DNA from: a virus
IMG/VR virus record: IMGVR_UViG_3300049489_000993
Coordinates: 1 to 64,000 of that record
DNA length: 64,000 nucleotides
Strand: one strand, 5' to 3'
Shown: in pieces, positions 24-62,041 of the stretch
How the letters are laid out: every line of letters starts with the position of its first letter
Numbering within the stretch: position 1 is the stretch's first letter
Notes under the pieces: model-generated
What the model was told of the DNA's origin: nothing
Database searches by the model: none
What the model saw: the letters and a program-made list of their open reading frames with translations, nothing else
Made by a program: the position numbers and the translations under genes

Positions 24-557
24 TTACCTCGGTTGGTGCCATGCCGCTTGGGCGACCGGCCCCGGACGTGTGTTTGCGCTCGCGGCCCTCTCCTCGACAT
101 AAACGCGCGCGAGGGCGGTGAGCATCTGCGCCTTACGCCCGAAAGCGTCAAACAAAAACTGGGCACAGCTCCACGCGCGCTCGACCTCGAGAAGACTGCC
201 TTGCCACGTCGGATACTCCGGCTGCGTGCGCCACTCCTCCTCGATCGCAGCTTGCGTGGCCTTGCTCTCGGCGCGGCGACGCGTGCTCCACGTATCTCGC
301 GCGACACGGTAGTCGGCCTGGCGTTGGTCGTGGGCGTACTTGGCATCGGCGACCATGCCGCCCCAAAACGCGACCCACGCGGGGCATACCGCGATGTGCG
401 CGTCGAGCTGTGCGGGGTCGGTGACGAGGAGGGGGACCAACTCTTGCGCGCTCCAGGCGCGCCCGTTGATCGTGAACGGGCGCCACACGCTCATCGTCGT
501 GGAGAGCATGTGGGTTTGCGCTTGGATCTCACGCGAGGTGGCGTCACGGTCCATCAT
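24..557 (-). CDS. UvsY-like recombination mediator (putative)
   Basis: ATG at 557 overlaps the polymerase stop (ATGA). Helical protein with the pattern KATQAAIEE..PEY....E......FDAF.RKAQML, typical of phage UvsY-like proteins. Confidence 0.55.
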   Translation of the reverse strand: MMDRDATSREIQAQTHMLSTTMSVWRPFTINGRAWSAQELVPLLVTDPAQLDAHIAVCPAWVAFWGGMVADAKYAHDQRQADYRVARDTWSTRRRAESKATQAAIEEEWRTQPEYPTWQGSLLEVERAWSCAQFLFDAFGRKAQMLTALARVYVEERAASANTRPGPVAQAAWHQPR

Positions 558-2542
558 TTCTTTTTCTCCCAGACAGGTTTTTTGTCGGCCCACGTCGTCG
601 AGGTCCATTCGGCGTCGGCGAGGATGGGAATCGGGGCGAACTGCGGGAAGTCTTCCATGACAGCTTTCAGCTCGCGGATTGCTTGCTCAGCGCCCTCGGG
701 GGCGAGATCAAACTGATTCTCGTCATGGACGGTCAGCACGAACTCGCCGTCGAAACGCCCCGCAGCGCGCCCGGCGGCGAGCACCTCGCAGCACCGCACG
801 ATGGCGATCTTTGCGATGTCGGCGGCGGTGCCCTGAATCATCGACGCGACGGCCTGGCGTGCGGCGCGCGGGTTGAAACGCTTGGTGCCGTACGTGTCCA
901 GCAGGTAGGGGATGCGCCGGGTGCGGCCGAAGATGTTGGTGAAGGCGTGGGGCCGTTGCCGCGCCATCGCGAGGCACAGCTCATCGGTGAAGGCGTTGAC
1001 GCGTGGGTACTCGGCGTGGAACTGCGCGTGCAACCGCTGGGCCTGTTCGTCGGACACGTAGTCAATGCCTTCGGACGGTTTAGCAGTCTTGTTGAGGTTT
1101 TCCATTATCCCAGTATATGTCATGCCGTATGCAGTACCGAAGTTGAACACTTTTGAAATGCGGCGCCAACGCTTCTCAATACTATGAAATAACTTGTTGC
1201 TAGTCGAGGCGTGAATATCCTCCCCGTTGACGAATGCCTGCGTCATCGTTGGTTCCGACGCACAGTACGCGAGCACCCGCAGCTCGATCTGAGAAAAGTC
1301 GATCAAGCCGCGCACCTTGCCACGCGGCACCACGAAAGCGCGCCGGATGCCGGCGTCGTCGTCAGAAGGGATATTTTGTAGGTTTGGCGCGGCAGCACTC
1401 ATGCGACCAGTACGCGCGCCCGCTTGTCGGAACGAACAATGCAATACACTATTAGCATCGCATCGATCAATGATCGGCGCGGTGTACGTCGTCAAGAGCT
1501 TGTCGGCTTCGCGCCATTCGAGCACCTCAGCGAGCATCGGCGTAACGGGCGAGCCTTGGCGCATCATGAATCGCAGCGCCGTCTCGTCGACGGAGGGTTG
1601 GCCTTCGACGCCGGGTTTGTCCTTGTTGCGCGTACGGTAATGGATCTCGTGGCGGCAATGTTCGTACAGGTACGTGCGAAGATCGTCGTCGCTGGAGACG
1701 TTCAGCGGATGTTGCGCGAGGCGGTGGATCTTGCCGAGCGCGACGTCACAGCGGGCTTGTGCGGAAGCGCCGATGCGCTGCAAATGCGGGATGTCGATCG
1801 GGACGCCGACCCATTCCGCCTGCACCAAGCGCGGGAGCAACCGCATCTCAGTCTCGTAGAGCGCGGCCCAATGCGCGCGAACCTGGGGCAGGAGCGCGTA
1901 GTGCAGCGCGAGCGTGTTGTAGCAATCCTTGGCCCCGTACTGCCCAAGGATGGGAACCGGAATCCAAGCGTAGCCGGGCGCCTCGCTTTCCTTCACCTTG
2001 TAGCGCCGGCACTCCTGCTTCAAGACCTCTTTGACGAGGTGCTTCATCTCGTAGGCGTTGGGGTCAACCCCGTGGAACACGCATCGGTGTTCCAGCTCCT
2101 TTGGCTCGTTCTCGTCGACGAGCTGGCATTGGATGAACGTGTCGTCCAGGCGGGCGCGGCAGACGATGCCGTCGACACGGGCAAACAGCAGATCGAACTT
2201 TATGTTCTGCCCCACGATGTTCGCGCGCGGGTCGCCGAGGATGTCTTGCACCATCTCGGTCACGGGAGCGACGGGGAGCTGTCGATCGTTGGTTTGGTGC
2301 CGGATGGGGAAGTAGACGCCGCGCGTGACGCCGTCGCCCTCGTCGTAGCCAAAGCCGTGCGCGATGATGCGCGCCGCGTGGAAGTAGTTGAAGCCACTCG
2401 TCTCGGTGTCCCAAGAAACGTATGTGCGCAGCGCCAGCTCTTTGAGCTTGGATCTCCAGAAGGGGATCTGCCGCTCGTCGGCTACGACGGTGGTGCGCGG
2501 ATCGATGCGCGGCAGCATCGCGGAGGCGAACTCAGCGAACAT
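554..2542 (-). CDS. polA: DNA polymerase, family A (3'-5' exonuclease + polymerase)
   Basis: Exonuclease motifs WDTETSG, GQNIKFD, YGAKD; TGRMS..PNLQNIP; motif A DFSQIELRVLA; motif B RISKVFNFGTAYG (Phe at the Pol I 762-equivalent position); motif C TVHDE. Confidence 0.97.
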   Translation of the reverse strand: MFAEFASAMLPRIDPRTTVVADERQIPFWRSKLKELALRTYVSWDTETSGFNYFHAARIIAHGFGYDEGDGVTRGVYFPIRHQTNDRQLPVAPVTEMVQDILGDPRANIVGQNIKFDLLFARVDGIVCRARLDDTFIQCQLVDENEPKELEHRCVFHGVDPNAYEMKHLVKEVLKQECRRYKVKESEAPGYAWIPVPILGQYGAKDCYNTLALHYALLPQVRAHWAALYETEMRLLPRLVQAEWVGVPIDIPHLQRIGASAQARCDVALGKIHRLAQHPLNVSSDDDLRTYLYEHCRHEIHYRTRNKDKPGVEGQPSVDETALRFMMRQGSPVTPMLAEVLEWREADKLLTTYTAPIIDRCDANSVLHCSFRQAGARTGRMSAAAPNLQNIPSDDDAGIRRAFVVPRGKVRGLIDFSQIELRVLAYCASEPTMTQAFVNGEDIHASTSNKLFHSIEKRWRRISKVFNFGTAYGMTYTGIMENLNKTAKPSEGIDYVSDEQAQRLHAQFHAEYPRVNAFTDELCLAMARQRPHAFTNIFGRTRRIPYLLDTYGTKRFNPRAARQAVASMIQGTAADIAKIAIVRCCEVLAAGRAAGRFDGEFVLTVHDENQFDLAPEGAEQAIRELKAVMEDFPQFAPIPILADAEWTSTTWADKKPVWEKKK

Positions 2543-2807
2543 GGAGCCCCAACGCGTGCCGCGCCCAGGCCGCCTCGATATCGGAGACGGACAGCTCGCG
2601 TGCCTGCGGGCCGAGGGTGCGGCCGGTGTAATCGCGCACGAGGTGGAGCCAGGTGTTATGCGGCGCCGACCAGAACACGACCTCGAGCACGACGGCGAGC
2701 GGCGAGATGAAAAGCGGGCTTTTGAACGGGAGGGTTTCCTCGGCCGAGAGCGCGCGGGTGTATTGCGGGTCGGTGAGGTTGATCGATGCAGAGAGATTCG
2801 TGCTCAC
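2532..2807 (-). CDS. hypothetical protein (91 aa)
   Basis: GTG start coupled to the upstream stop (GTGA); fills the operon gap before the polymerase. Confidence 0.6.
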   Translation of the reverse strand: MSTNLSASINLTDPQYTRALSAEETLPFKSPLFISPLAVVLEVVFWSAPHNTWLHLVRDYTGRTLGPQARELSVSDIEAAWARHALGLHVR

Positions 2808-4537
2808 GATTTCTTGCGCTGCCTCCTCTTCTTTGAACGCTTGGGTTTGCGGCGGGGCTTTGCGGACTTGGCGAGGGTCGCGGCGGGGGATTGGATCTCG
2901 GGGCGCGGGCGGCGCTGGCGATCGATATGGACGTGTACCGAGAGCACGGCGAAGAACTTGGCGCCGGACCACGCGTTGTTGCCGGTGATCGAGCGCGCGA
3001 GCTGTCCAAGCGTCCCGTCCTCAATCATGCTTTCCTGCGGCGACCCAACCACCTGCCCGCGCTCGTCGATCTGGGCCGTCCACAGGACGCGCCAGACCCC
3101 ATCTCGGCGGTAGGTAGCGCCGGTCGCGCGGGTCATGTCGCCGCGGCCGTCTTTGAGCTTGACCACACGGTACCGGACGCCTCGCCAATCCCGCTCCAGC
3201 TCATGCCCGACGGGCAGCAAGGCCAGCTCGGCCGCCGACCCTTGCGGCTTGCGGTACCAGCGCGACCCATCGGCCTTGAGCGCGTAGGCTTTCTGGCCGG
3301 CCGGCAGCACCCCCCGGCGCTGGCTCAGGTAGACCCGCTCCGGTGCGATCGGCTGCGCGCGGAACAGGCGCTTGGAGCCCCCGGTGGGCGTCGACGGACC
3401 AGGGCGGCGCACCTTGGGCCGGCGTTTCGGACGGGGGGGCGCAGCCGGCTTGGCGTCCTCGACGGGGTCCTCGTCGGGGGCCGATGGGATCTCGTCCTCC
3501 TCATCGTCGCCGGGAATCGCGGGGGCTTCTTCGTCGTGGTCTTCGTCGGGGATCGAGGGAACTTCGGTGGGTGCATCCTCTTCGGTGTCGTCTTCCTCGA
3601 CGAGCGGCGGTGGGGGCGGCGGCGTCGTGGTCGACTTGATCAGCACCAAGGGTGGCGAGCGCGGAGCGGGAGCGTGGGCACGTTGGATCGTGGCGAGCTG
3701 GGCTTCGATCTCGGGGCGGGCACCGAGGGCGGCTTCGCAGTCGCCACAAAAGCCGCACTCTTTGGTGCAGGTGGGGTCGGTGAGGTCGAAGTGCCGCGGG
3801 GAGGCGAAGCAGGGCGGGAAGTCCTGCACGTCGCCGCGGTCGTCGGTCATGATCGCGGACACCTCGCGCACGAGGTAGGGGCGATCGAGGGCTTTGACGG
3901 GCGAGCGGTTGGCCAGGGCCACGCGCGCCAGCTCGGCGACGGGCAGCGTTTCGACGGGGCGGGAATCGGGCATTGCGGCATCTCCGTACAGGTGAACCAC
4001 GTCGGCGATTGTGGCGCCCGGCATCTCTCGCCGGGCACGGCGCACGGCGGCGAGTCGGGAGCCCTTCGTCGAGCGGCGGGGCGCCGTCGGTGTACCACGA
4101 GATCCAACGGCATGGATCTCATAAAGGTCCTGAAAAATGGTCTCGCCGATGACGCCCCGAAGGCGCTCGACGGCCGCCTGGCACGCCGCCTGGCGCTCGG
4201 CGGCGAGCACAGCATGCTCCGCGGTCGGCGCTGCGTCCGAGAGGGTGTCGAGGTCGGCGTCGAAAGAGCGAGCCAGCGCGGCACGCGGCTTGGCGTTGGC
4301 CTTGCGAATCAGCGAAATGAAGGCGCTCGAAATGGAGCGGCGCACGTAAGCGATCTCCTCCTCCGGGGGCAGCCCGAGCTGGCGCGCGGCGACGAGGGCT
4401 CGCCATGCGGACACGCGGCATTCGGCGCGCACGTCGTCGTGGTCGACGGCGAGGCGGTCTCGCATCCAGGTGGGGGCGTAGTAGCGGCGGACAAAGGGCT
4501 CGTAGCGCGCAAGATCGCGCTCGATGGCATGTGGCAT
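2804..4537 (-). CDS. sigma-70/ECF-like region 2 protein fused to a Cys-cluster, an acidic linker and a DUF2924-like domain
   Basis: GGGAG RBS before ATG 4537. N-terminus DHDDVRAECRVSAWRA...AYVRRSISSAFISLIRK; CF..........C..ECGFC..C cluster; C-terminal LPVGHELERDWRGVRYRV...LGQLARSITGNNAWSGAKFF matches the DUF2924 pattern. Confidence 0.65.
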   Translation of the reverse strand: MPHAIERDLARYEPFVRRYYAPTWMRDRLAVDHDDVRAECRVSAWRALVAARQLGLPPEEEIAYVRRSISSAFISLIRKANAKPRAALARSFDADLDTLSDAAPTAEHAVLAAERQAACQAAVERLRGVIGETIFQDLYEIHAVGSRGTPTAPRRSTKGSRLAAVRRARREMPGATIADVVHLYGDAAMPDSRPVETLPVAELARVALANRSPVKALDRPYLVREVSAIMTDDRGDVQDFPPCFASPRHFDLTDPTCTKECGFCGDCEAALGARPEIEAQLATIQRAHAPAPRSPPLVLIKSTTTPPPPPPLVEEDDTEEDAPTEVPSIPDEDHDEEAPAIPGDDEEDEIPSAPDEDPVEDAKPAAPPRPKRRPKVRRPGPSTPTGGSKRLFRAQPIAPERVYLSQRRGVLPAGQKAYALKADGSRWYRKPQGSAAELALLPVGHELERDWRGVRYRVVKLKDGRGDMTRATGATYRRDGVWRVLWTAQIDERGQVVGSPQESMIEDGTLGQLARSITGNNAWSGAKFFAVLSVHVHIDRQRRPRPEIQSPAATLAKSAKPRRKPKRSKKRRQRKKS

Positions 4538-4568
4538 TGGTTGTCTCCCGGCGTCAGGGGCAGCTAGG

Positions 4569-4742
4569 TCACGGAGGCAGGCGCTTGGCAATAGCCTTGT
4601 CGCGCGGCATCCAATCGTATGAACGGGGCAAGGTCAGCAGCGCCAGCGCGGCGCGCTCGCCGGCGGAATCCAAGCGCAGTCGGCGCAACCACGCTTGGAT
4701 GCGATGAATGGTGGCGCGGAGTCGGGGGTCAGGGCGCGGCAT
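4569..4742 (-). CDS. small hypothetical protein (57 aa, MPRPDPRLRATIHRIQAWL...)
   Basis: Translated by hand (below the ORF-track cutoff); fills the gap in the operon. Confidence 0.45.
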   Translation of the reverse strand: MPRPDPRLRATIHRIQAWLRRLRLDSAGERAALALLTLPRSYDWMPRDKAIAKRLPP

Positions 4743-4962
4743 TGGGAACCGCTTGTGGGGCGAAGAGTAAGTCGCCCTTCTTGGTCATGGCGCCTGTGCG
4801 GAGCATGAGCGCCTCGATCTGCTCGTACTGTTGGATCGTGCAGCCCTGCGCCATGAGCGCCGCGTAGACGGTGCCGGCGGGGCAGCCGAGGGGGGCCGCC
4901 GCGGCGACGGCCTCACGCACGGCGAGGACGACTTGCAGGAGCGCCCGCTCCTGCGCGCTCAC
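4729..4962 (-). CDS. small hypothetical protein, possible winged helix
   Basis: GTGA coupling; G.PAGTVYAALM..G...QYEQI...L...G pattern. Confidence 0.65.
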   Translation of the reverse strand: MSAQERALLQVVLAVREAVAAAAPLGCPAGTVYAALMAQGCTIQQYEQIEALMLRTGAMTKKGDLLFAPQAVPNAAP

Positions 4963-5165
4963 GAGCGCACCGCCTTCAACGCCAGCGCGGCGCGAAGGAC
5001 GATCAGATCCGTAACGCCGATGACGCGCTCCATGACGCTTGCCGAGCGCGCCATCGTCTCAGAGCGCGCGATCATGGCGGTGATGTGATGGGTGGTCGCC
5101 TTCTCCGCCAGATTCGCGGCGAGGGTGGCGGTAAGCTGTTCGCAGGCAGTCTCGGGTGCGGGCAT
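4959..5165 (-). CDS. hypothetical protein (68 aa)
   Basis: GGAGG RBS, directly downstream of the promoter at 5185-5213. Confidence 0.7.
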   Translation of the reverse strand: MPAPETACEQLTATLAANLAEKATTHHITAMIARSETMARSASVMERVIGVTDLIVLRAALALKAVRS

Positions 5166-5184
5166 TGCGGACCTCCGTGCGCTC

Positions 5185-5224
5185 AGCTTACAGCCTTGGA
5201 TCTTGGGTGTCAAGCGTGAGACTA
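5185..5224 (-). promoter_or_regulatory. sigma-70-type promoter with overlapping palindromic operator (copy 1)
   Basis: TTGACA-N17-TAAGCT; GTCTCA-CGCT-TGACAC overlaps the -35; 5194-5224 is identical to 14024-14054. Confidence 0.85.
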
Positions 5225-5245
5225 CAGCCCCACAGATCCGAGCAC

Positions 5246-6304
5246 TTACGGGATCAATGCGATCTTGGAAAGCGCCCCGATCGGCTGGGCCTGCGCGCGC
5301 CATGCGCGGTTCTCAGCGACGGTGTAGCTGCCAGGGTCCGCACCGTCGGGGTAGCGCACGACGCGCACAGTGAAATGGGGGGCAAGCTTCTCGGCGGCGA
5401 GCTGCGCAGGCGGCGTTTTGCCAGGGCGATCAGTGAGCCACGAATCCGGGTCATAGGCGAGGTCCACCTCACGAATGCCCGCCATGACAAGGAGCCGGAT
5501 TTGCTGCTCGGAGATCACCTTGCCGAAGGTCGCAACGGCGTCGGGGCCAGACTGTAGCCAATCGGTCGGCCCCTCGACGATGGCAATGCGTGCATGCGCG
5601 CGAGCGTACTCCAGCCCCAAAACGACGTCGCTGGCAGACGCAAAGCGCGCGGGATCTTGATTCGCCGGGTTCAGGTTCTTGCGGTACTTCCCGAAGCGCG
5701 CCTCGTCGTGCTCGCTCTTTTCCCACGTCGCACGCGTCTGGAAGTAGATCCACCCCCCCGCATAGTCTCGCACCGGAAACACAAGCCGATCTTGGTACAG
5801 CCCCCATGTGCAAATGCCGACGCCGAGTCGCATGAGGTTGTCGAGGTCAAAGCCGCGCTTGGCGGTGTACGGGTGATGCCCGCGCAAGTGCTCAAAATAG
5901 GGAGGCGGATCAATCGGGGCCGGCTGCCAGAACCGCGGTCGCTCGACGACGGCACGATCGGCATGCGGGTCCTCGGGGATGAGCGCCAGTGAGCGCCCTC
6001 CCGCCGACAAGCGCACCAGCTCGGCGGCCTGCGGGAAACCCCCCTCGTACTCTGCGATCAGCTCCAAGAGCGAGAAGCCCCGCGCGCACCGCAAGCAGCG
6101 CCATTTACGACGCTGCGGGTTGATCGAGAGCTTGTCTTCACCGCCGCACCACGGGCACGTTTGGAGGTACTCGTTGCGCTGTCGACCCTGCGGCTTGAAC
6201 CCGTGGCGCGTGAGCCACTTCTCGAGGGGGAACCTCTCGAGGAGCACCAAGAACGCGGCGTTCTCAGAAGCCCACGTCGACTTGTTCGTGAGGGGTGGGG
6301 TCAT
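5246..6304 (-). CDS. dnaG: DNA primase (Zn finger + TOPRIM)
   Basis: CPWC...WRCLRC zinc-binding domain; RLVFPV; IVEGPTD; LAYDPD; DPG. Confidence 0.92.
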   Translation of the reverse strand: MTPPLTNKSTWASENAAFLVLLERFPLEKWLTRHGFKPQGRQRNEYLQTCPWCGGEDKLSINPQRRKWRCLRCARGFSLLELIAEYEGGFPQAAELVRLSAGGRSLALIPEDPHADRAVVERPRFWQPAPIDPPPYFEHLRGHHPYTAKRGFDLDNLMRLGVGICTWGLYQDRLVFPVRDYAGGWIYFQTRATWEKSEHDEARFGKYRKNLNPANQDPARFASASDVVLGLEYARAHARIAIVEGPTDWLQSGPDAVATFGKVISEQQIRLLVMAGIREVDLAYDPDSWLTDRPGKTPPAQLAAEKLAPHFTVRVVRYPDGADPGSYTVAENRAWRAQAQPIGALSKIALIP

Positions 6305-57161: not shown

Positions 57162-60100
57162 TACCCATCATCGTCTGATTCCCCGAGCATGCGCAAAGCG
57201 TCGTGGAGCGGGGGAATGGCGCGGCGGCGTTCCATCTCTTGCTCGGCGCGCGCATGGTTTCGCTTGGAGCCCGCGCGGGCGCCCTCGCGGAGGTCGCGCA
57301 GCGTTTGCGGCACGTAGCCCTCGGTGGTGGGCGGCTCGCGCTCGACGCGCACGAACAGCGGGCGAAACCGATCTGCGCCCGCCTTGAAACGCTCGCGTGC
57401 GTCGGCTTCCTTTTGCTTGTCCTTTTTGCGCTTGTCCTTCTTCGCTTTGAGGGTGAGGCGGATGCTGTCCGCGGCCTGCATGTTGGACGGCGGGCGCTGT
57501 TTCTTGGGGGCGTCTTGGTTGCCGAGCCAAGACATCATGGTCAGGCGCGTGGGGTTGTTCGCGAGCGCCTGTAAGGCGTCAGGATCGCTTTTCTGCGCAT
57601 CGGGGTAGGTACGGGGCACCTCGAGCGCGCGAGCGTCTTGGCGGGTGCCCTGGAGCCGCTCGACGAACTCCTCGAATGGGAACACGGTAACGCCGCCCAG
57701 GAAGCGGGGGTCGCTGTAGTGGGTGAGATACGCCGCGACGGCCTCTGACTGGCTTGGGAAGCCCAGCATGACCTTGTCCTCGTCCTCGTCGGCGAAGGCG
57801 CCGTTGGGGCCGCGTTTTTTCATTTGGTGGACGACGTAGACGTTCTCGGCGTTCTCGTTGGGACCGACGTAGACGTCCACCTTGTCGCCGTCGAGCCCTT
57901 CGGTGCGATGAATCTCCCCGTACGGGAACTGCATTTCCGTTTCGCCGTGCTCGCCGGTGTGCTCGTCGAACCATTGGCGCGTGGAGCCGGCGGGGTTCTC
58001 GACGTGGATGTGGAGCCCACGGAAGCGGATGTCGGCCTTGAACAGCGAGAGCTGTCCCTGCGGGGGAGGTGGCGCCGAGGCGGTGAGCTTGGTGGCGGGA
58101 TCGGGGATGGGGTGTGCGGCGGGGGTCTCCTGGCGTCCGTACACCGCGTTGTGCGCCGCGTGCCACTCGGGGCCGAGGGCGGCGACGCGCTTCTCGAACG
58201 CCGTGAGGGCGCGCTTGATGGCGGCGTCGTCGCGCCCATATTTCCGCTTGTGCTCGCGCGGGTCCATGCCCTCGGTCGCGCCCCCACCTACGCGGCGCGC
58301 GGTGGCCTTCCCGGCGACGTAGGACAAGAACACTTTGACGCCCGATGCGAGAGTGACCGTCTCCTCGGCGCCGGAACCGTCTGTGTGGCTCTTGAAGTCG
58401 CCGGGGGCGGGTTGTGTTGGTGGGGACTGTGCCGGAGCCGGAGCCGGAGGTGGTGCCGCGACCGCTTCCAGCGTGCGCGTGGCGTCCGCGATGGGTGTGG
58501 TGGGTGCCGCGGAAGGCGTGCTCGGCGGGGGCTCCACGGCCTTGCCTTGGATCTTCGCCAGTACGTCTGCCATCGCGAGGGGCTTTTCCATCCACTCGCG
58601 CTCGGCGGGCGAGATTTGCTTGCCCTGATTGATCTTCGCGGCGAGGTCGTACTTACGACGGAGAATCGCCGTCACGTTCTCGTCGAACTTGTTGTCCTCC
58701 GCAACGACCCAGTAGATGTTGACGGCGTTTTGCTGGCCGATGCGGTGTGCTCGGTCTTCGGCTTGGCCGATGTCGGCAGCGGTCCACGGGAGGTCGTTGA
58801 ACACGACCTTGTCGGCGGCGGTGAGCGTGGCGCCGACGGCCAGCGACGGGCGCGTCGAAACGAACACGCGCTTGGGCGAGCCCTCCCGCATGAACTCGGC
58901 CTTGGCGGCTTCGCGCACGTCGTCGGATTGCTGGCCGTAGTGCAGGATGGCCTCGTCACCCAGCTCGGCGACAATGGCTTTCGCGGCGGCGACCGACTCA
59001 GAGAACACAAGCACCTTGCTGTCGGAGCTGCCAAGGATCTCCTTCACCATCTCGACGGTGGCGGGAGCCTTCGCGAGTGCGAGCTGGCCTCGGATGCGGC
59101 TGTATTCGCCGACCGAGGTCGACGGCGCACCGCGACCGCCCGCGCCGTACTCGCCGACCGCTTCTGCGTAGAGGTCGGCGTCGTTCTCCTCATCGCGACG
59201 CGACTCCCGGAAGTCTTCGGCCGCTTTCGCGTATGCGGCCTTCTGGCGCTCGGTCGCTCCGGGCGGTGGCGGCTTGGGCTCTCGCACCTCGCCGATATCG
59301 GGGGCACCTGGCGCGTAGAGTGTGCTGATCGTGGTCTGCTTCGGCGGAAGGTCTTTCAGCACCTCAGCCTTCGTGCGCGCGAGGTAGTGGGGGCGCATCT
59401 TGTTCCACGCCGCCCCGTGCGTCGCCCCCTTCAACTCTTTCGCCGAGCCCCACAGGCCCGGCACGACCATCTCGAGCTGCGTGAACAGCTCATCCTTGCG
59501 GTTCTTGACGGCGGTGCCGGACATGAGGATGTGGTGCTGCGTGATCTTTGCTACACTTTGAATCGCCTTAGTAGTTTTGGCTTTGGGGTTTTTCGCACGG
59601 TGACTGTTGTGGACTAGGACGCCACCGACGGAGAAGGATGGGTGCCCAGCCACCTTGAGATCGTAGTAGTGACCCGCTTCGTTTCCTGGGTAACTTCCCG
59701 ATTGGTGAACCGTAACGTCGCCCACCCTAACTCCCGCAACTTCTCCTCTTTCTTGAAATCCTGGCCTTTCCGAGACAAGTGCGAGAAGCCATCCACTTCG
59801 ACGCTGAGCTTCCGATCTACCAATGCGAGGTCGGCTTTGTAGTTGGTGGGATAGCCGGGCTGTCGCCGACCAAGGCTGATCGCGTGATTCCACTTCCACG
59901 GAGGGCCGAGCGCCTCGAGTAGCGTTCGCTCGGCTTCTGTCGGTCCCGTACCGTTGCCTCTGCGCACCGTCGGCTTCCAACCCATCGCCTTGAGCGACGC
60001 CGACGCCTTGGCGCGCGTCTCTGCACTGCGCATCGGGTTGTTCGCCCTCATCCGCGCCGAGCACGCCGGGCTCTTCTTCCCAATATTCGCCGCCCGCAGA

Positions 60101-62041
60101 GCAGCCTTCCCTTCCGGCGTCATCAGGCTCTTCGCGTAGCCCGGACGGCTCATCCTCCACTTCGCTGAACAGGAGGTCCCGCAGAAACGATTCTTGCTCC
60201 GAGGCGGCGTGAAGGTCTTCCCGCAAAAGGCGCATGGCTTCTGTGTGGCTGACAAGCGTGTCTCCGGGCTTGAGGTCTTCGGCGTAGATCCAACCTCTCC
60301 CGGTGAAGAACGGATGGTGCGCCGAGCACGTCACAGACGTGCTGCCGTACCTTAGCTCGATGCGATTGGCAAAACCAGACCGCCGAAACGCGCCTAGAAC
60401 TGGAGCCGGACCGAGAGCCGATAGGACAATGTCGCCGACTTGAATCTGATCGATACGACGAGGGCCGGTCGGCGTGTCAACGAGCGTCTCAGGACCGAAG
60501 CATTCGTCGACAATCAGTGTATCAAAGCCCGCCGCTTTGAGATAGGGCATGAACTTCTCGAGGCTTTCGTAGTTGACCGTCACGAGATTCTTGCCCGAGA
60601 GGTCCATCAGGCCCTTCTCGCCGCCCGCGTGCATCGCCGCGAGGAACGCGGCAGGGTCATCGATCGACGCAAGGTCGGTGCCCTTCTTGCCTTTGCCCGT
60701 AAGCAGATCCTTGGACCGAAGCTCCTTCGCATCGAAGTGCCCTGGGAAGAACTTGTGGGCTTCTTGAATCCAAGTGCGGCGCACAACCTTCGGCACGACG
60801 ACGATCGCCTTCTTGTTGTTCTTGGCGACCCACGCAAGCGCCTGAAGCGTTTTGCCAAGCCCCATTTCGTCGCCGACGATGGCGTTGCCGTCGTTGCCGT
60901 CGAGGAAGCGCACCATCGCGTTCTGGTACGGCTTGAGCGCAAAGCCTGGCGCGAGCTTGGCTTGCACCTCGGGAATCGGGGCCTCGGCGGCGGCTTTGTC
61001 GCGCGCGGCTTTGTCGGCGGCGTCTTTGATCTTGGGATCGAGCACGAACGTGAAGTGCGGGAGTGCGGCGCGGAGCTTCTCGAGCGCCTCCTCCATGAGC
61101 GCGTGCGAGAACGTGGAGCGGCTCCAGGTGCGGGGATCCGCTTCGATGATGCCGGTGAGCTTGCCGGTTTTGTTCGACATGATCTCGTTGAAGTCGCGTG
61201 AGAATGTCGAATAGAACACAAAGCGGCCGTCGTCCTCCTGCACAAGCGCGATCGTGTCGCGGGCGCGCTTGTTCACGATGGCCGAAGCGACTTCGTACAC
61301 GTCGACGGGCCGTGGGGGCGTCGGCGGTTGTGCGACGGGCGTGGCAACGGGGGCCTGCTCCACGATCTCCGGCTTCTCGGGGATGTGGATCTTGATCCCA
61401 CGCTTCTCGAGCGCCGCGACGTAGGCGCTTGGATCTTGCGCCACGGGGTGTGTCGGTGGGACCGTCTCGCGCGCGGCGGCACCGCGCTCCCCGTTCCAGC
61501 GGAACCCGTGCGTGCGGTGAATGTCCTTGAACGCGGCGAACTTGTCGCCGAGGTACTGCGCCGTGCGGATGTGCAAGCCCCCGTTGGACGTCCACTGGCC
61601 GACGAGGTCGGCGTCCGCAGTTGCCGGCGGCGGGTCCGCGAGGCCCACGCGGATGAACGCCTCGAGCCCGTAGTGCCCGACGAGCTGCCGGCGGTACTTG
61701 CGCAGCATCCGGCGCATGCGCTCGACGTCTCCGCGGGCGCTTCCCCACGACTGATAGTCGAGCTTGTTGAAGCCAATGTCGTTCTGCTCGCGGACCTCGT
61801 CGACGGAATGCAACGCGTCGCCCATGCGCTCGAGGAGAGCGACCGCTTCCGGGTCCGCGTGACGCTCCTTGAACTCGTGGTGCGCCTGCTTGTCCTCGAC
61901 GACCTCCCACTCGCCCTTCGCGTTCTTGCGGTGGAGCTTGCCGTCGGCCCATTGGTGGACGGTGCCGGCGACAGCGGCTTCCGCTTTCGCGATGGCGTCC
62001 TCGACATACAGGCGGATGGGGCTGTCGGCAGAGTCACTCAT
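57161..62041 (-). CDS. polyvalent head-associated protein: SNF2 (SMARCAL1-like) helicase with intein + InPase-like domain
   Basis: GGAGG RBS at ATG 62041. LKPYQ; GDEMGLGKT; VNYE; DE|SH; MSGTA..NR..EL; KVLVFS; GATLTAA; QAEDRAHRIGQ; C-terminal GL.I.VENP.GS.R...YG.I..TEG.DGD.VDV.VGP...DEDKVMLGF. Confidence 0.9.
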   Translation of the reverse strand: MSDSADSPIRLYVEDAIAKAEAAVAGTVHQWADGKLHRKNAKGEWEVVEDKQAHHEFKERHADPEAVALLERMGDALHSVDEVREQNDIGFNKLDYQSWGSARGDVERMRRMLRKYRRQLVGHYGLEAFIRVGLADPPPATADADLVGQWTSNGGLHIRTAQYLGDKFAAFKDIHRTHGFRWNGERGAAARETVPPTHPVAQDPSAYVAALEKRGIKIHIPEKPEIVEQAPVATPVAQPPTPPRPVDVYEVASAIVNKRARDTIALVQEDDGRFVFYSTFSRDFNEIMSNKTGKLTGIIEADPRTWSRSTFSHALMEEALEKLRAALPHFTFVLDPKIKDAADKAARDKAAAEAPIPEVQAKLAPGFALKPYQNAMVRFLDGNDGNAIVGDEMGLGKTLQALAWVAKNNKKAIVVVPKVVRRTWIQEAHKFFPGHFDAKELRSKDLLTGKGKKGTDLASIDDPAAFLAAMHAGGEKGLMDLSGKNLVTVNYESLEKFMPYLKAAGFDTLIVDECFGPETLVDTPTGPRRIDQIQVGDIVLSALGPAPVLGAFRRSGFANRIELRYGSTSVTCSAHHPFFTGRGWIYAEDLKPGDTLVSHTEAMRLLREDLHAASEQESFLRDLLFSEVEDEPSGLREEPDDAGREGCSAGGEYWEEEPGVLGADEGEQPDAQCRDARQGVGVAQGDGLEADGAQRQRYGTDRSRANATRGARPSVEVESRDQPWSATARLSHQLQSRPRIGRSEAQRRSGWLLALVSERPGFQERGEVAGVRVGDVTVHQSGSYPGNEAGHYYDLKVAGHPSFSVGGVLVHNSHRAKNPKAKTTKAIQSVAKITQHHILMSGTAVKNRKDELFTQLEMVVPGLWGSAKELKGATHGAAWNKMRPHYLARTKAEVLKDLPPKQTTISTLYAPGAPDIGEVREPKPPPPGATERQKAAYAKAAEDFRESRRDEENDADLYAEAVGEYGAGGRGAPSTSVGEYSRIRGQLALAKAPATVEMVKEILGSSDSKVLVFSESVAAAKAIVAELGDEAILHYGQQSDDVREAAKAEFMREGSPKRVFVSTRPSLAVGATLTAADKVVFNDLPWTAADIGQAEDRAHRIGQQNAVNIYWVVAEDNKFDENVTAILRRKYDLAAKINQGKQISPAEREWMEKPLAMADVLAKIQGKAVEPPPSTPSAAPTTPIADATRTLEAVAAPPPAPAPAQSPPTQPAPGDFKSHTDGSGAEETVTLASGVKVFLSYVAGKATARRVGGGATEGMDPREHKRKYGRDDAAIKRALTAFEKRVAALGPEWHAAHNAVYGRQETPAAHPIPDPATKLTASAPPPPQGQLSLFKADIRFRGLHIHVENPAGSTRQWFDEHTGEHGETEMQFPYGEIHRTEGLDGDKVDVYVGPNENAENVYVVHQMKKRGPNGAFADEDEDKVMLGFPSQSEAVAAYLTHYSDPRFLGGVTVFPFEEFVERLQGTRQDARALEVPRTYPDAQKSDPDALQALANNPTRLTMMSWLGNQDAPKKQRPPSNMQAADSIRLTLKAKKDKRKKDKQKEADARERFKAGADRFRPLFVRVEREPPTTEGYVPQTLRDLREGARAGSKRNHARAEQEMERRRAIPPLHDALRMLGESDDDG
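59606..60502 (-). mobile_element. intein (299 aa) inserted in the helicase Walker B motif
   Basis: DE|CFGPETLV...; block B C.AHHPF; GWI.AEDL.PGD; block F YYDLKV.GH.SF; VLVHN|S. Confidence 0.95.
59614..60255 (-). CDS. Vsr-like/DUF559 homing endonuclease overprinted on the intein (+1 frame)
   Basis: TTG start with GGAG 6 nt upstream; CAFCGKTF...RFCGTSC zinc finger; NUMOD3-like NPM...TRAK.S.SL; T.AE..L; Y.ADLA....L.VEVDG.SH....D..K...L...GW..LRF.N. Confidence 0.88.
   Translation of the reverse strand: MSATQKPCAFCGKTFTPPRSKNRFCGTSCSAKWRMSRPGYAKSLMTPEGKAALRAANIGKKSPACSARMRANNPMRSAETRAKASASLKAMGWKPTVRRGNGTGPTEAERTLLEALGPPWKWNHAISLGRRQPGYPTNYKADLALVDRKLSVEVDGFSHLSRKGQDFKKEEKLRELGWATLRFTNREVTQETKRVTTTISRWLGTHPSPSVAS

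Follow-up and report, generated by a model that had tools for sequence, protein, structure and literature searches.

Endonucleases encoded out of frame or antisense within contiguous inteins are already known as a kind, from 1998 and from preprints of 2025–2026. One such preprint (bioRxiv 10.1101/2025.01.02.630785), in which an antisense LAGLIDADG endonuclease within a contiguous intein is attributed to Gorbalenya 1998, describes non-canonical inteins of actinobacteriophages that carry antisense LAGLIDADG, antisense VSR-like or sense “frame 3” endonuclease VII-like enzymes, in genes for polymerase, minor capsid, terminase and thymidylate synthase. In a second (bioRxiv 10.64898/2026.09.14.751524), the cyanobacterial dnaX intein harbors an out-of-frame LAGLIDADG endonuclease under purifying selection; the antisense reading that the first preprint attributes to Gorbalenya 1998 is of this intein. 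Fractured genes, in turn, carry split inteins with a free-standing Vsr-like gene between the halves, the host gene consisting of two open reading frames (ORFs), with a stop and a non-coding spacer of 27–51 nt before the nuclease and an overlap of 6–69 bp (Dassa et al. 2009, PMC2677866). The EDxHD homing endonuclease I-Bth0305I is encoded by a group I intron in recA of phage 0305phi8-36 (PMC3239194; PDB 3R3P), and the ShiLan element places an HNH endonuclease in a shifted frame within a phage methylase gene that has no intein (PMC11855218). Here we describe a locus that can be set beside all of these: a class-1 intein in a viral SNF2 helicase gene whose +1 frame encodes a predicted Vsr-like homing nuclease. 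It lies in IMG/VR virus record IMGVR_UViG_3300049489_000993, of which positions 1 to 64,000 were analyzed (64,000 nt, hereafter the window).

The helicase ORF of 1654 amino acids (aa) is stop-free across the whole 299-aa intein, which starts with CFGPETL... (C1) immediately after LIVDE and ends with ...GGVLVHN ahead of Ser+1 (SHRAKN); Hint-type Pfam matches fall at residues 542–840. By its Cys1, its block B (S-A-H-H63), its C-terminus ...VLVH298-N299|S (the bar marks the splice junction), its profile matches and an empty-site allele described below, the element is a class-1 intein, predicted to splice. C1, H63 and N299 are invariant among 61 relatives, and the motif ...YYDLKVAGHPSFSVGGVLVHN of the C-terminal splicing part is kept across loci. 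The Hint_2 score is 28.5 bits against a cut-off of 28.4, and Intein_splicing matches the host frame with an E-value (E) of 7e-6, under the family cut-off; that family is matched by 59 of the 61 host-frame segments of the relatives (best 1e-16), and endonuclease families in Pfam by none of the 61. Relative to the nearest relatives, L001 and L002, the N-terminal splicing part is 51–66% identical and the C-terminal part 69–73%, with 28–29% in the middle. An AlphaFold2 (AF2) model built on a 61-sequence alignment gives high confidence for residues 1–118 and 251–299 and a predicted local distance difference test score (pLDDT) of 42–56 for residues 121–250; the host-frame middle, rich in Gly, Ser, Arg and Glu, is a hydrophilic and probably disordered spacer.

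Read in the +1 frame, the same DNA holds an ORF with its TTG start at 60255–60253 and its stop codon at 59616–59614, 8 nt ahead of the splice junction between 59606 and 59605. Its product most likely comprises a zinc finger, a helical DNA-binding region and a Vsr-like (DUF559) domain, and is a predicted homing nuclease. DUF559 (PF04480) is matched with E 9.5e-12 and a score of 45.2 bits, where the cut-off is 20.6, MTES_1575 is also matched in Pfam, and a sequence profile search of the PDB retrieves 3HRL (6e-13) and 3R3P (0.011). An AF2 model from a 66-sequence alignment has a mean pLDDT of 92. With that model Foldseek finds 3HRL (template modeling score, TM, 0.74) and 3R3P (TM 0.76; root-mean-square deviation 2.4), then Vsr (1CW0/1VSR); these matches (probability 1.00, TM target-normalized) have weak E-values (0.002–0.4) and align the C-terminal half alone, and they were relied on solely in combination with the Pfam and PDB profile matches. 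For the zinc finger, the profiles of the FCS, MYM and eL24 zinc ribbons are matched only weakly. The motif E-V-D-G-F-S-H...D-F-K-K offers acidic and His residues with a spacing unlike the literal E-D-x-H-D, and every residue that is invariant in the family (C8, C11, C25, (C29), N101, G102, D142, E153, D155, G156, H159, D166, K169, W178, R182 and N185) is present in the copy studied here.

The locus had been singled out in a preliminary description made from the sequence alone, and its anatomy stands as given there: all coordinates for the intein, the nuclease ORF, the TTG and the GGAG hold, as do a host frame open from C1 to HN|S, a featureless middle of the intein, and a nuclease ORF that runs through blocks F and G to stop just short of the junction. 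Profile searches of both frames returned the Hint families in the host frame and DUF559 in the +1 frame. Within the nuclease, the zinc finger and the Vsr-like domain were borne out; the NUMOD3 module also named there was not, its profile match (E 2.2) falling under the threshold. The features are collected in Table 1.

Table 1. Features of the helicase gene, its intein and the nested nuclease gene, in window coordinates
Feature	Position	Strand	Basis
Host gene, SNF2 helicase ORF, 1654 aa	57161..62125	−	ORF list; Pfam SNF2-rel_dom, Helicase_C, InPase
Class-1 intein, 299 aa, inside motif II (LIVDE|C...HN|SHRAKN)	59606..60502	−	Pfam Hint_2, Intein_splicing, PT-HINT
N-terminal splicing part, intein residues 1–85, blocks A and B	60248..60502	−	AF2 pLDDT 93–98
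Host-frame spacer, intein residues 86–250, −1-frame shadow of the nuclease gene	59753..60247	−	AF2, frame identities, Pfam
C-terminal splicing part, intein residues 251–299, blocks F and G, HN	59606..59752	−	pLDDT 81–97; conserved motif
Predicted nested nuclease gene, 213 aa, TTG start	59614..60255	−, +1 frame	ORF list; DUF559 E 9.5e-12; AF2 mean pLDDT 92
Predicted zinc finger of the nuclease, C8, C11, C25, C29	60169..60234	−	Invariant Cys columns; weak zinc-ribbon profile matches
Predicted Vsr-like/DUF559 catalytic domain, aa 137–201; E153, D155, H159, D166, K169	59653..59847	−	Pfam, PDB profiles, Foldseek
GGAG Shine-Dalgarno-like motif, 6 nt upstream of TTG, from intein codons P-G-D	60262..60265	−	Sequence
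Predicted dual-structure overlap, ~29 codons	59641..59727	−	Secondary structure and pLDDT of both models, mapped by coordinates
First 20 C-extein codons, low GC at third codon positions (GC3)	59546..59605	−	GC3 8/20; remainder of the gene 0.84; P ~2e-5
Last 10 N-extein codons, GC3 lowered to 0.5	60503..60532	−	Weak: 13/20 over 20 codons, P 0.04

Because the genome is about 65% GC and holds many long spurious ORFs, with alternative-frame ORFs of 431 and 597 aa near the locus as examples, the stop-free host frame was tested against chance by permuting the synonymous codons of the nuclease ORF and counting stops in the host frame. No stop arose in 0.08% of the permutations (mean 5.65 stops), and when the middle 160 codons alone were considered, the host frame was stop-free in 0.3%; under resampling with the codon usage of the exteins it was stop-free in 2–5% of trials. 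The open host frame at this locus thus exceeds chance expectation (P 0.0008–0.05), as the preliminary description had supposed. The nuclease ORF has 29 codons ending in T and 53 beginning with AA, AG or GA, and in no case does one of the former stand before one of the latter. Stop avoidance would then be achieved through synonymous third positions of the nuclease, with no NNT placed before a codon starting with AA, AG or GA; any stop would abolish the host gene, and this keeps its frame open.

The same arrangement is found far beyond this record. Relatives of the nuclease number 28 in the protein database and hundreds, confirmed by tblastn, in contig collections; the loci counted here are the best 80 of 358 relatives in IMG/VR, 51 full-length hits in GTDB genomes and 80 metagenome loci of at least 548 relatives. 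In IMG/VR, the host frame across the nuclease (nuclease +2) is stop-free in 78 of the 80 loci and forms part of an ORF of 490–2200 aa, and the remaining third frame has 2–27 stops; synonymous permutation of these loci, whose GC content spans 28–70%, predicts a mean of 6.7 host-frame stops per locus and 524 in total, figures whose joint probability is not to be taken literally, as the loci are akin to one another and a few contigs are duplicated between collections. The result itself is secure. An open host frame over the nuclease is likewise seen in 50 of the 51 genomic hits, which come from many phyla, and in 74 of the 80 metagenome loci. The +1 arrangement thus recurs in about 200 loci and is family-wide, with both frames open. 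Five free-standing copies of the nuclease (L025, L057, L185, L212 and L242), with 4–11 stops in the corresponding frame, serve as an internal control for stop avoidance.

The relatives share more than an open frame. Upstream of the nuclease, their host frame reads xxDE|CF..GT.V.T..G..., and in nearly all loci the nuclease stops within ...VYNLEV.GHPSYSVNG.LVHN|C/S (blocks F and G); the C-terminal tails of the 28 relatives in the protein database (..STISK.K.TTTTSPTAS) resemble these blocks read in a shifted frame. The insertion site is nearly always xxDE|C...HN|S/C and lies without exception at the acidic pair of Walker-B/motif II; the host genes encode SNF2 helicases, ResIII/DEAD helicases, a T4-type large terminase and unclassified P-loop proteins. 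That standard annotation would miss the nuclease, another claim of the preliminary description, is apparent in GenBank, where 40 records of cultured phages hold a same-strand nuclease within a gene labeled only as a helicase and none has a coding sequence annotated for the nuclease. For instance, RefSeq has only the helicase gp10 over the nuclease ORF of Vibrio phage CP-T1 (NC_019457.1, 7872–8453) and only the helicase gp43 over that of Corynebacterium phage phi673 (NC_042354.1); phage 24, Rostov M3, the Nahant Vibrio phages and Pseudomonas MR14 are further cultured phages with only the helicase annotated.

Across the middle of the intein, sequence comparison indicates that selection acts on the nuclease frame and that the host frame is selected against stops alone. 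In a codon-threaded comparison of 76 non-redundant loci, amino-acid identity is 0.2–0.6 in the nuclease frame and 0.1–0.3 in the host frame, which equals that of the third, non-coding frame. In the 24 pairs whose nucleases are over 60% identical, codon positions 1, 2 and 3 of the nuclease frame bear 1299, 1267 and 2268 substitutions, and amino-acid differences amount to 37% in the nuclease frame vs 61% in the host frame. The nuclease frame also carries a normal coding signature, because GC in the middle of the intein peaks at host codon position 1, which is nuclease position 3. Selection for hydrophilicity or disorder of the spacer was considered and is not claimed: compared with synonymous permutation the shift is weak (mean z −0.68, with 68% of loci negative) and marginal, and the spacer is hydrophilic mainly as a by-product.

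At the 3′ end of the nuclease gene, the two frames are predicted to be structured together. When the AF2 models are mapped onto the DNA, strand 179–184 and helices 185–205 of the nuclease lie over strands 257–267 and 279–284 of the intein, and by these models about 30 codons code for folded parts of both proteins. As a separate observation, AF2 also places two host-frame helices (pLDDT 80–93) at intein residues 86–116 (60155–60247), over the shadow of the zinc finger (FLRDLLFSEVE over RFCGTSCSAKWRM); these helices may be genuine, or may be an artefact arising from conservation in the alignment.

The nuclease is most likely translated on its own, from an internal GGAG-N6-TTG. In the host frame the start region, ccc-gga-gac-acg-cTT-Gtc, gives P-G-D-T-L-V, so that both GGAG and TTG are made from codons of “L.PGD.L”, the conserved sequence with which the N-terminal splicing part ends. 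GGAG or GGGG with a TTG 7 codons ahead of the first Cys occurs in the record studied here and in L002, L010, L012, L016 and L018, and at nearly all loci a start codon (ATG, GTG or TTG) lies no more than a few codons away from the zinc finger. A stop just 6–15 codons upstream closes the nuclease frame at many loci, and free-standing homologs have their own ATG at the equivalent position.

An empty version of the site exists in a related phage. L084 (IMGVR_UViG_3300036945_000814, 107 kb) has, at 197–4576, a 1459-aa SNF2/InPase ortholog without an intein, whose N-extein is 60% identical and whose junction reads ...AAGFDTIIVDE|SHRAKNPKAKTT...; because this is an exact intein-less junction, the intein boundaries DE|SH are confirmed. 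On both sides of the intein the extein codons have a lowered GC3 (Table 1), which returns to 0.9–1.0 beyond the two tracts, and the orthologous codons of intein-less L084 are GC3-rich; L084, like the rest of the helicase gene studied here, uses a GC3 of ~0.85. The flanks are therefore suggestive of co-conversion tracts from a donor of lower GC content.

Copies of the nuclease outside inteins were also encountered. In L057 (IMGVR_UViG_2124908045_000001), at 2992–5455, a free-standing nuclease homolog of 217 aa ends 11 nt into an intein-less P-loop gene of 606 aa, which is 43% identical (E 6e-102) to the L034 gene that hosts a nested intein; by its sequence, this arrangement looks like a free-standing stage of the element beside its target gene, as would fit if the nested gene had begun as a free-standing homing endonuclease. 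In L125 (a Polaromonas glacialis R3-9 scaffold), at 2878–3602, a nuclease copy that no long host ORF encloses adjoins an IS110-like transposase, and its shifted frame still reads a relic of the C-terminal strand of an intein (..VEGVEVLERGHP..DFEV..); this copy seems to have been carried off from its intein.

We consider it probable that the locus is a mobile composite element, in which an intein at the Walker-B motif carries a separately translated, out-of-frame homing nuclease. The class-1 intein would sit at the Walker-B/DExH motif (LIVDE|SH) of a phage SNF2 ATPase without an in-frame endonuclease domain, its spacer of ~165 residues being simply the host-frame reading across the +1 gene. The precursor helicase would be read straight through and the intein spliced out in cis, and the nuclease, initiated at the internal GGAG-N6-TTG, would cut intein-less alleles near the DE|SH junction, whereupon repair would copy the intein together with the nuclease gene into the cut allele, that is, homing. 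A cis-splicing intein with a separate, overprinted nuclease is what the preliminary description had proposed, and it is supported by the roughly 200 loci, the conservation of the nuclease frame, both structural models and the empty-site allele. Several points weigh on the other side. TTG is a weak start, and a Shine-Dalgarno-like motif precedes the nearest start in only 21 of 71 family members; a scan for a promoter-like site or terminator in 59400–60700 found none, a result that is uninformative. The literal EDxHD motif of I-Bth0305I is absent as such from the nuclease, which has E-V-D-G-F-S-H...D instead. A disordered spacer of 165 residues could slow splicing, the low-GC3 flanks may have another cause, and kinship and duplicates among the loci make joint statistics overstate their independence.

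The weak TTG would also suit a nuclease ORF that is a dying relic, within a mini-intein that has a long spacer, is inherited vertically and has finished homing; decay of homing endonuclease genes after fixation is common (a general model discussed in 10.64898/2026.09.14.751524). We judge this unlikely for an ORF that is full length and retains all family-invariant residues, and for a phage group in which an intein-less ortholog persists (L084); the low GC3 of the flanks suggests that the element came in from another genome fairly recently, and decayed copies look otherwise, as does one from a metagenome (L193) with stops in both frames. The scarcity of Shine-Dalgarno-like motifs in many family members, together with a frame relation that is always +1, could instead point to a programmed +1 frameshift, by which the nuclease would be made as a fusion to the N-extein and N-intein with no internal initiation. 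However, an ATG, GTG or TTG lies near the zinc finger at nearly every locus, the upstream stop 6–15 codons away leaves almost no space for a shift site in many of them, and free-standing homologs begin with an ATG of their own at the equivalent position; the constant +1 relation follows because the loci descend from one ancestor and any indel would break the host gene. A frameshifted fusion is, in our estimate, quite improbable.

We give scarcely any credence to an artefact, in which assembly or sequencing indels would have moved an in-frame endonuclease out of frame, or the high GC content would have opened the frame by chance. The record is indeed a metagenome assembly, and a genome of ~65% GC with spurious ORFs of 431 and 597 aa nearby invites the suspicion. 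Yet the same frame relation holds in about 200 other loci, AT-rich ones and the complete genomes of Vibrio CP-T1 and Corynebacterium phi673 included, and since the ORF spans blocks F and G, two compensating indels would be required and block F would be destroyed. Moreover, a Logan contig from the probable source sample, an independent assembly though not an independent sample, is identical over 59300–60800 with 0 gaps, which speaks against the assembly indel that the preliminary description had raised as a concern, and the permutation test at this locus alone gives P 0.0008–0.05. A further sequencing run contains just short extein fragments of a relative (5% of words), which are silent on the intein.

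The family shows that contiguous inteins with a homing endonuclease out of frame are no peculiarity of actinophages: a single Vsr-like family accounts for hundreds of loci, in phages and prophages of many phyla. Gene-calling software, and surveys that recognize inteins by an endonuclease domain in frame, will file these elements under mini-inteins or under inteins whose endonuclease has degenerated, and the nuclease will be missed. The overlap also constitutes a natural experiment in overlapping genes, in which one frame is selected for its protein and the other for stop avoidance, except in the ~30 doubly structured codons. The family may yield new site-specific nucleases, compact inteins and evidence on the origin of split inteins, and L084 is useful as an empty-site reference for this phage group. 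A more ambitious proposal, about which we are rather doubtful, is that the family forms a large, ancient and undescribed clade that hops between Walker-B sites of phage helicases, SNF2 ATPases and terminases, is the direct precursor of fractured genes and has true dual coding over ~30 codons. If so, one nonsense mutation in the spacer would turn such an element into a split intein with a free-standing Vsr-like gene in the same geometry.

With respect to known systems, the preliminary description went too far in calling the layout a third architecture, given that the literature already holds contiguous inteins whose endonuclease lies in a different frame or on the other strand (10.1101/2025.01.02.630785; 10.64898/2026.09.14.751524). 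The literature searched contains no account of a contiguous intein with a Vsr-like/DUF559 endonuclease on the sense strand in +1, nor of a family of this size and host range, nor of a conserved 3′ overlap with folded C-terminal blocks. The present element resembles the actinobacteriophage inteins (10.1101/2025.01.02.630785) in being contiguous, with a host frame that is open yet unstructured and a nuclease in another frame; there, too, phage P-loop NTPase genes are often the hosts, and invasion by a free-standing endonuclease is proposed. It differs from them in that its nuclease is Vsr-like/DUF559, on the sense strand in +1, at Walker-B sites of helicase, SNF2 and terminase genes, and in that the nuclease gene reaches with its 3′ end into the folded C-terminal blocks of the intein. 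The families are distinct, because only 2 actinophage records match the present nuclease. The dnaX intein (10.64898/2026.09.14.751524) likewise has an overlapping ORF under purifying selection and an intein frame that evolves freely and stays open, for which secondary invasion of a mini-intein is proposed; unlike the present case, it involves LAGLIDADG, a bacterial chromosomal host gene and another frame or strand.

In layout, the fractured genes (PMC2677866) are close to the present element. Both have a same-strand Vsr-like nuclease between N- and C-terminal splicing parts in phage DNA-metabolism genes, with an N part of ~85–90 aa, a C part of ~45 aa and a nuclease whose 3′ end overlaps the coding sequence of the C-intein. 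Unlike fractured genes, the present locus lacks both the stop and the spacer; its nuclease starts inside intein codons and overlaps the C-terminal part by ~140 nt. Split-intein versions carrying this nuclease numbered 0 among the 80 viral and 51 genomic loci. The suggestion, made in the preliminary description, that the element is an intermediate toward fractured genes draws weak backing from a single-stop locus and from the free-standing copies, which together are too thin to support it. Its further suggestion, that the layout would keep the nuclease out of a probably virion-packaged protein, is speculative. The locus in question, L168 (Ga0066654_10057863, soil metagenome), at 686–1738, has one stop in the host-frame spacer (..FRAWG*WDG..) with intein parts and nuclease ORF intact, and could represent a split-intein (“fractured”) form that exists in nature, unless the stop is a sequencing error.

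The catalytic domain, for its part, shares its fold with I-Bth0305I (3R3P) and the DUF559 protein 3HRL, and in I-Bth0305I, as here, the Vsr-like domain makes up the C-terminal portion, with a DNA-binding region N-terminal to it. In contrast to the present nuclease, I-Bth0305I is intron-encoded and does not overlap another gene, and the nuclease described here has E-x-D-G-x-x-H...D-x-K-K and an N-terminal zinc finger. Finally, the ShiLan element (PMC11855218) differs from the present case in that its enzyme is of the HNH type and its insert is retained in the mature protein, and it is alike in having a hidden nuclease ORF in a shifted frame, a host frame that stays open through the insert, and a nuclease missed by annotation.

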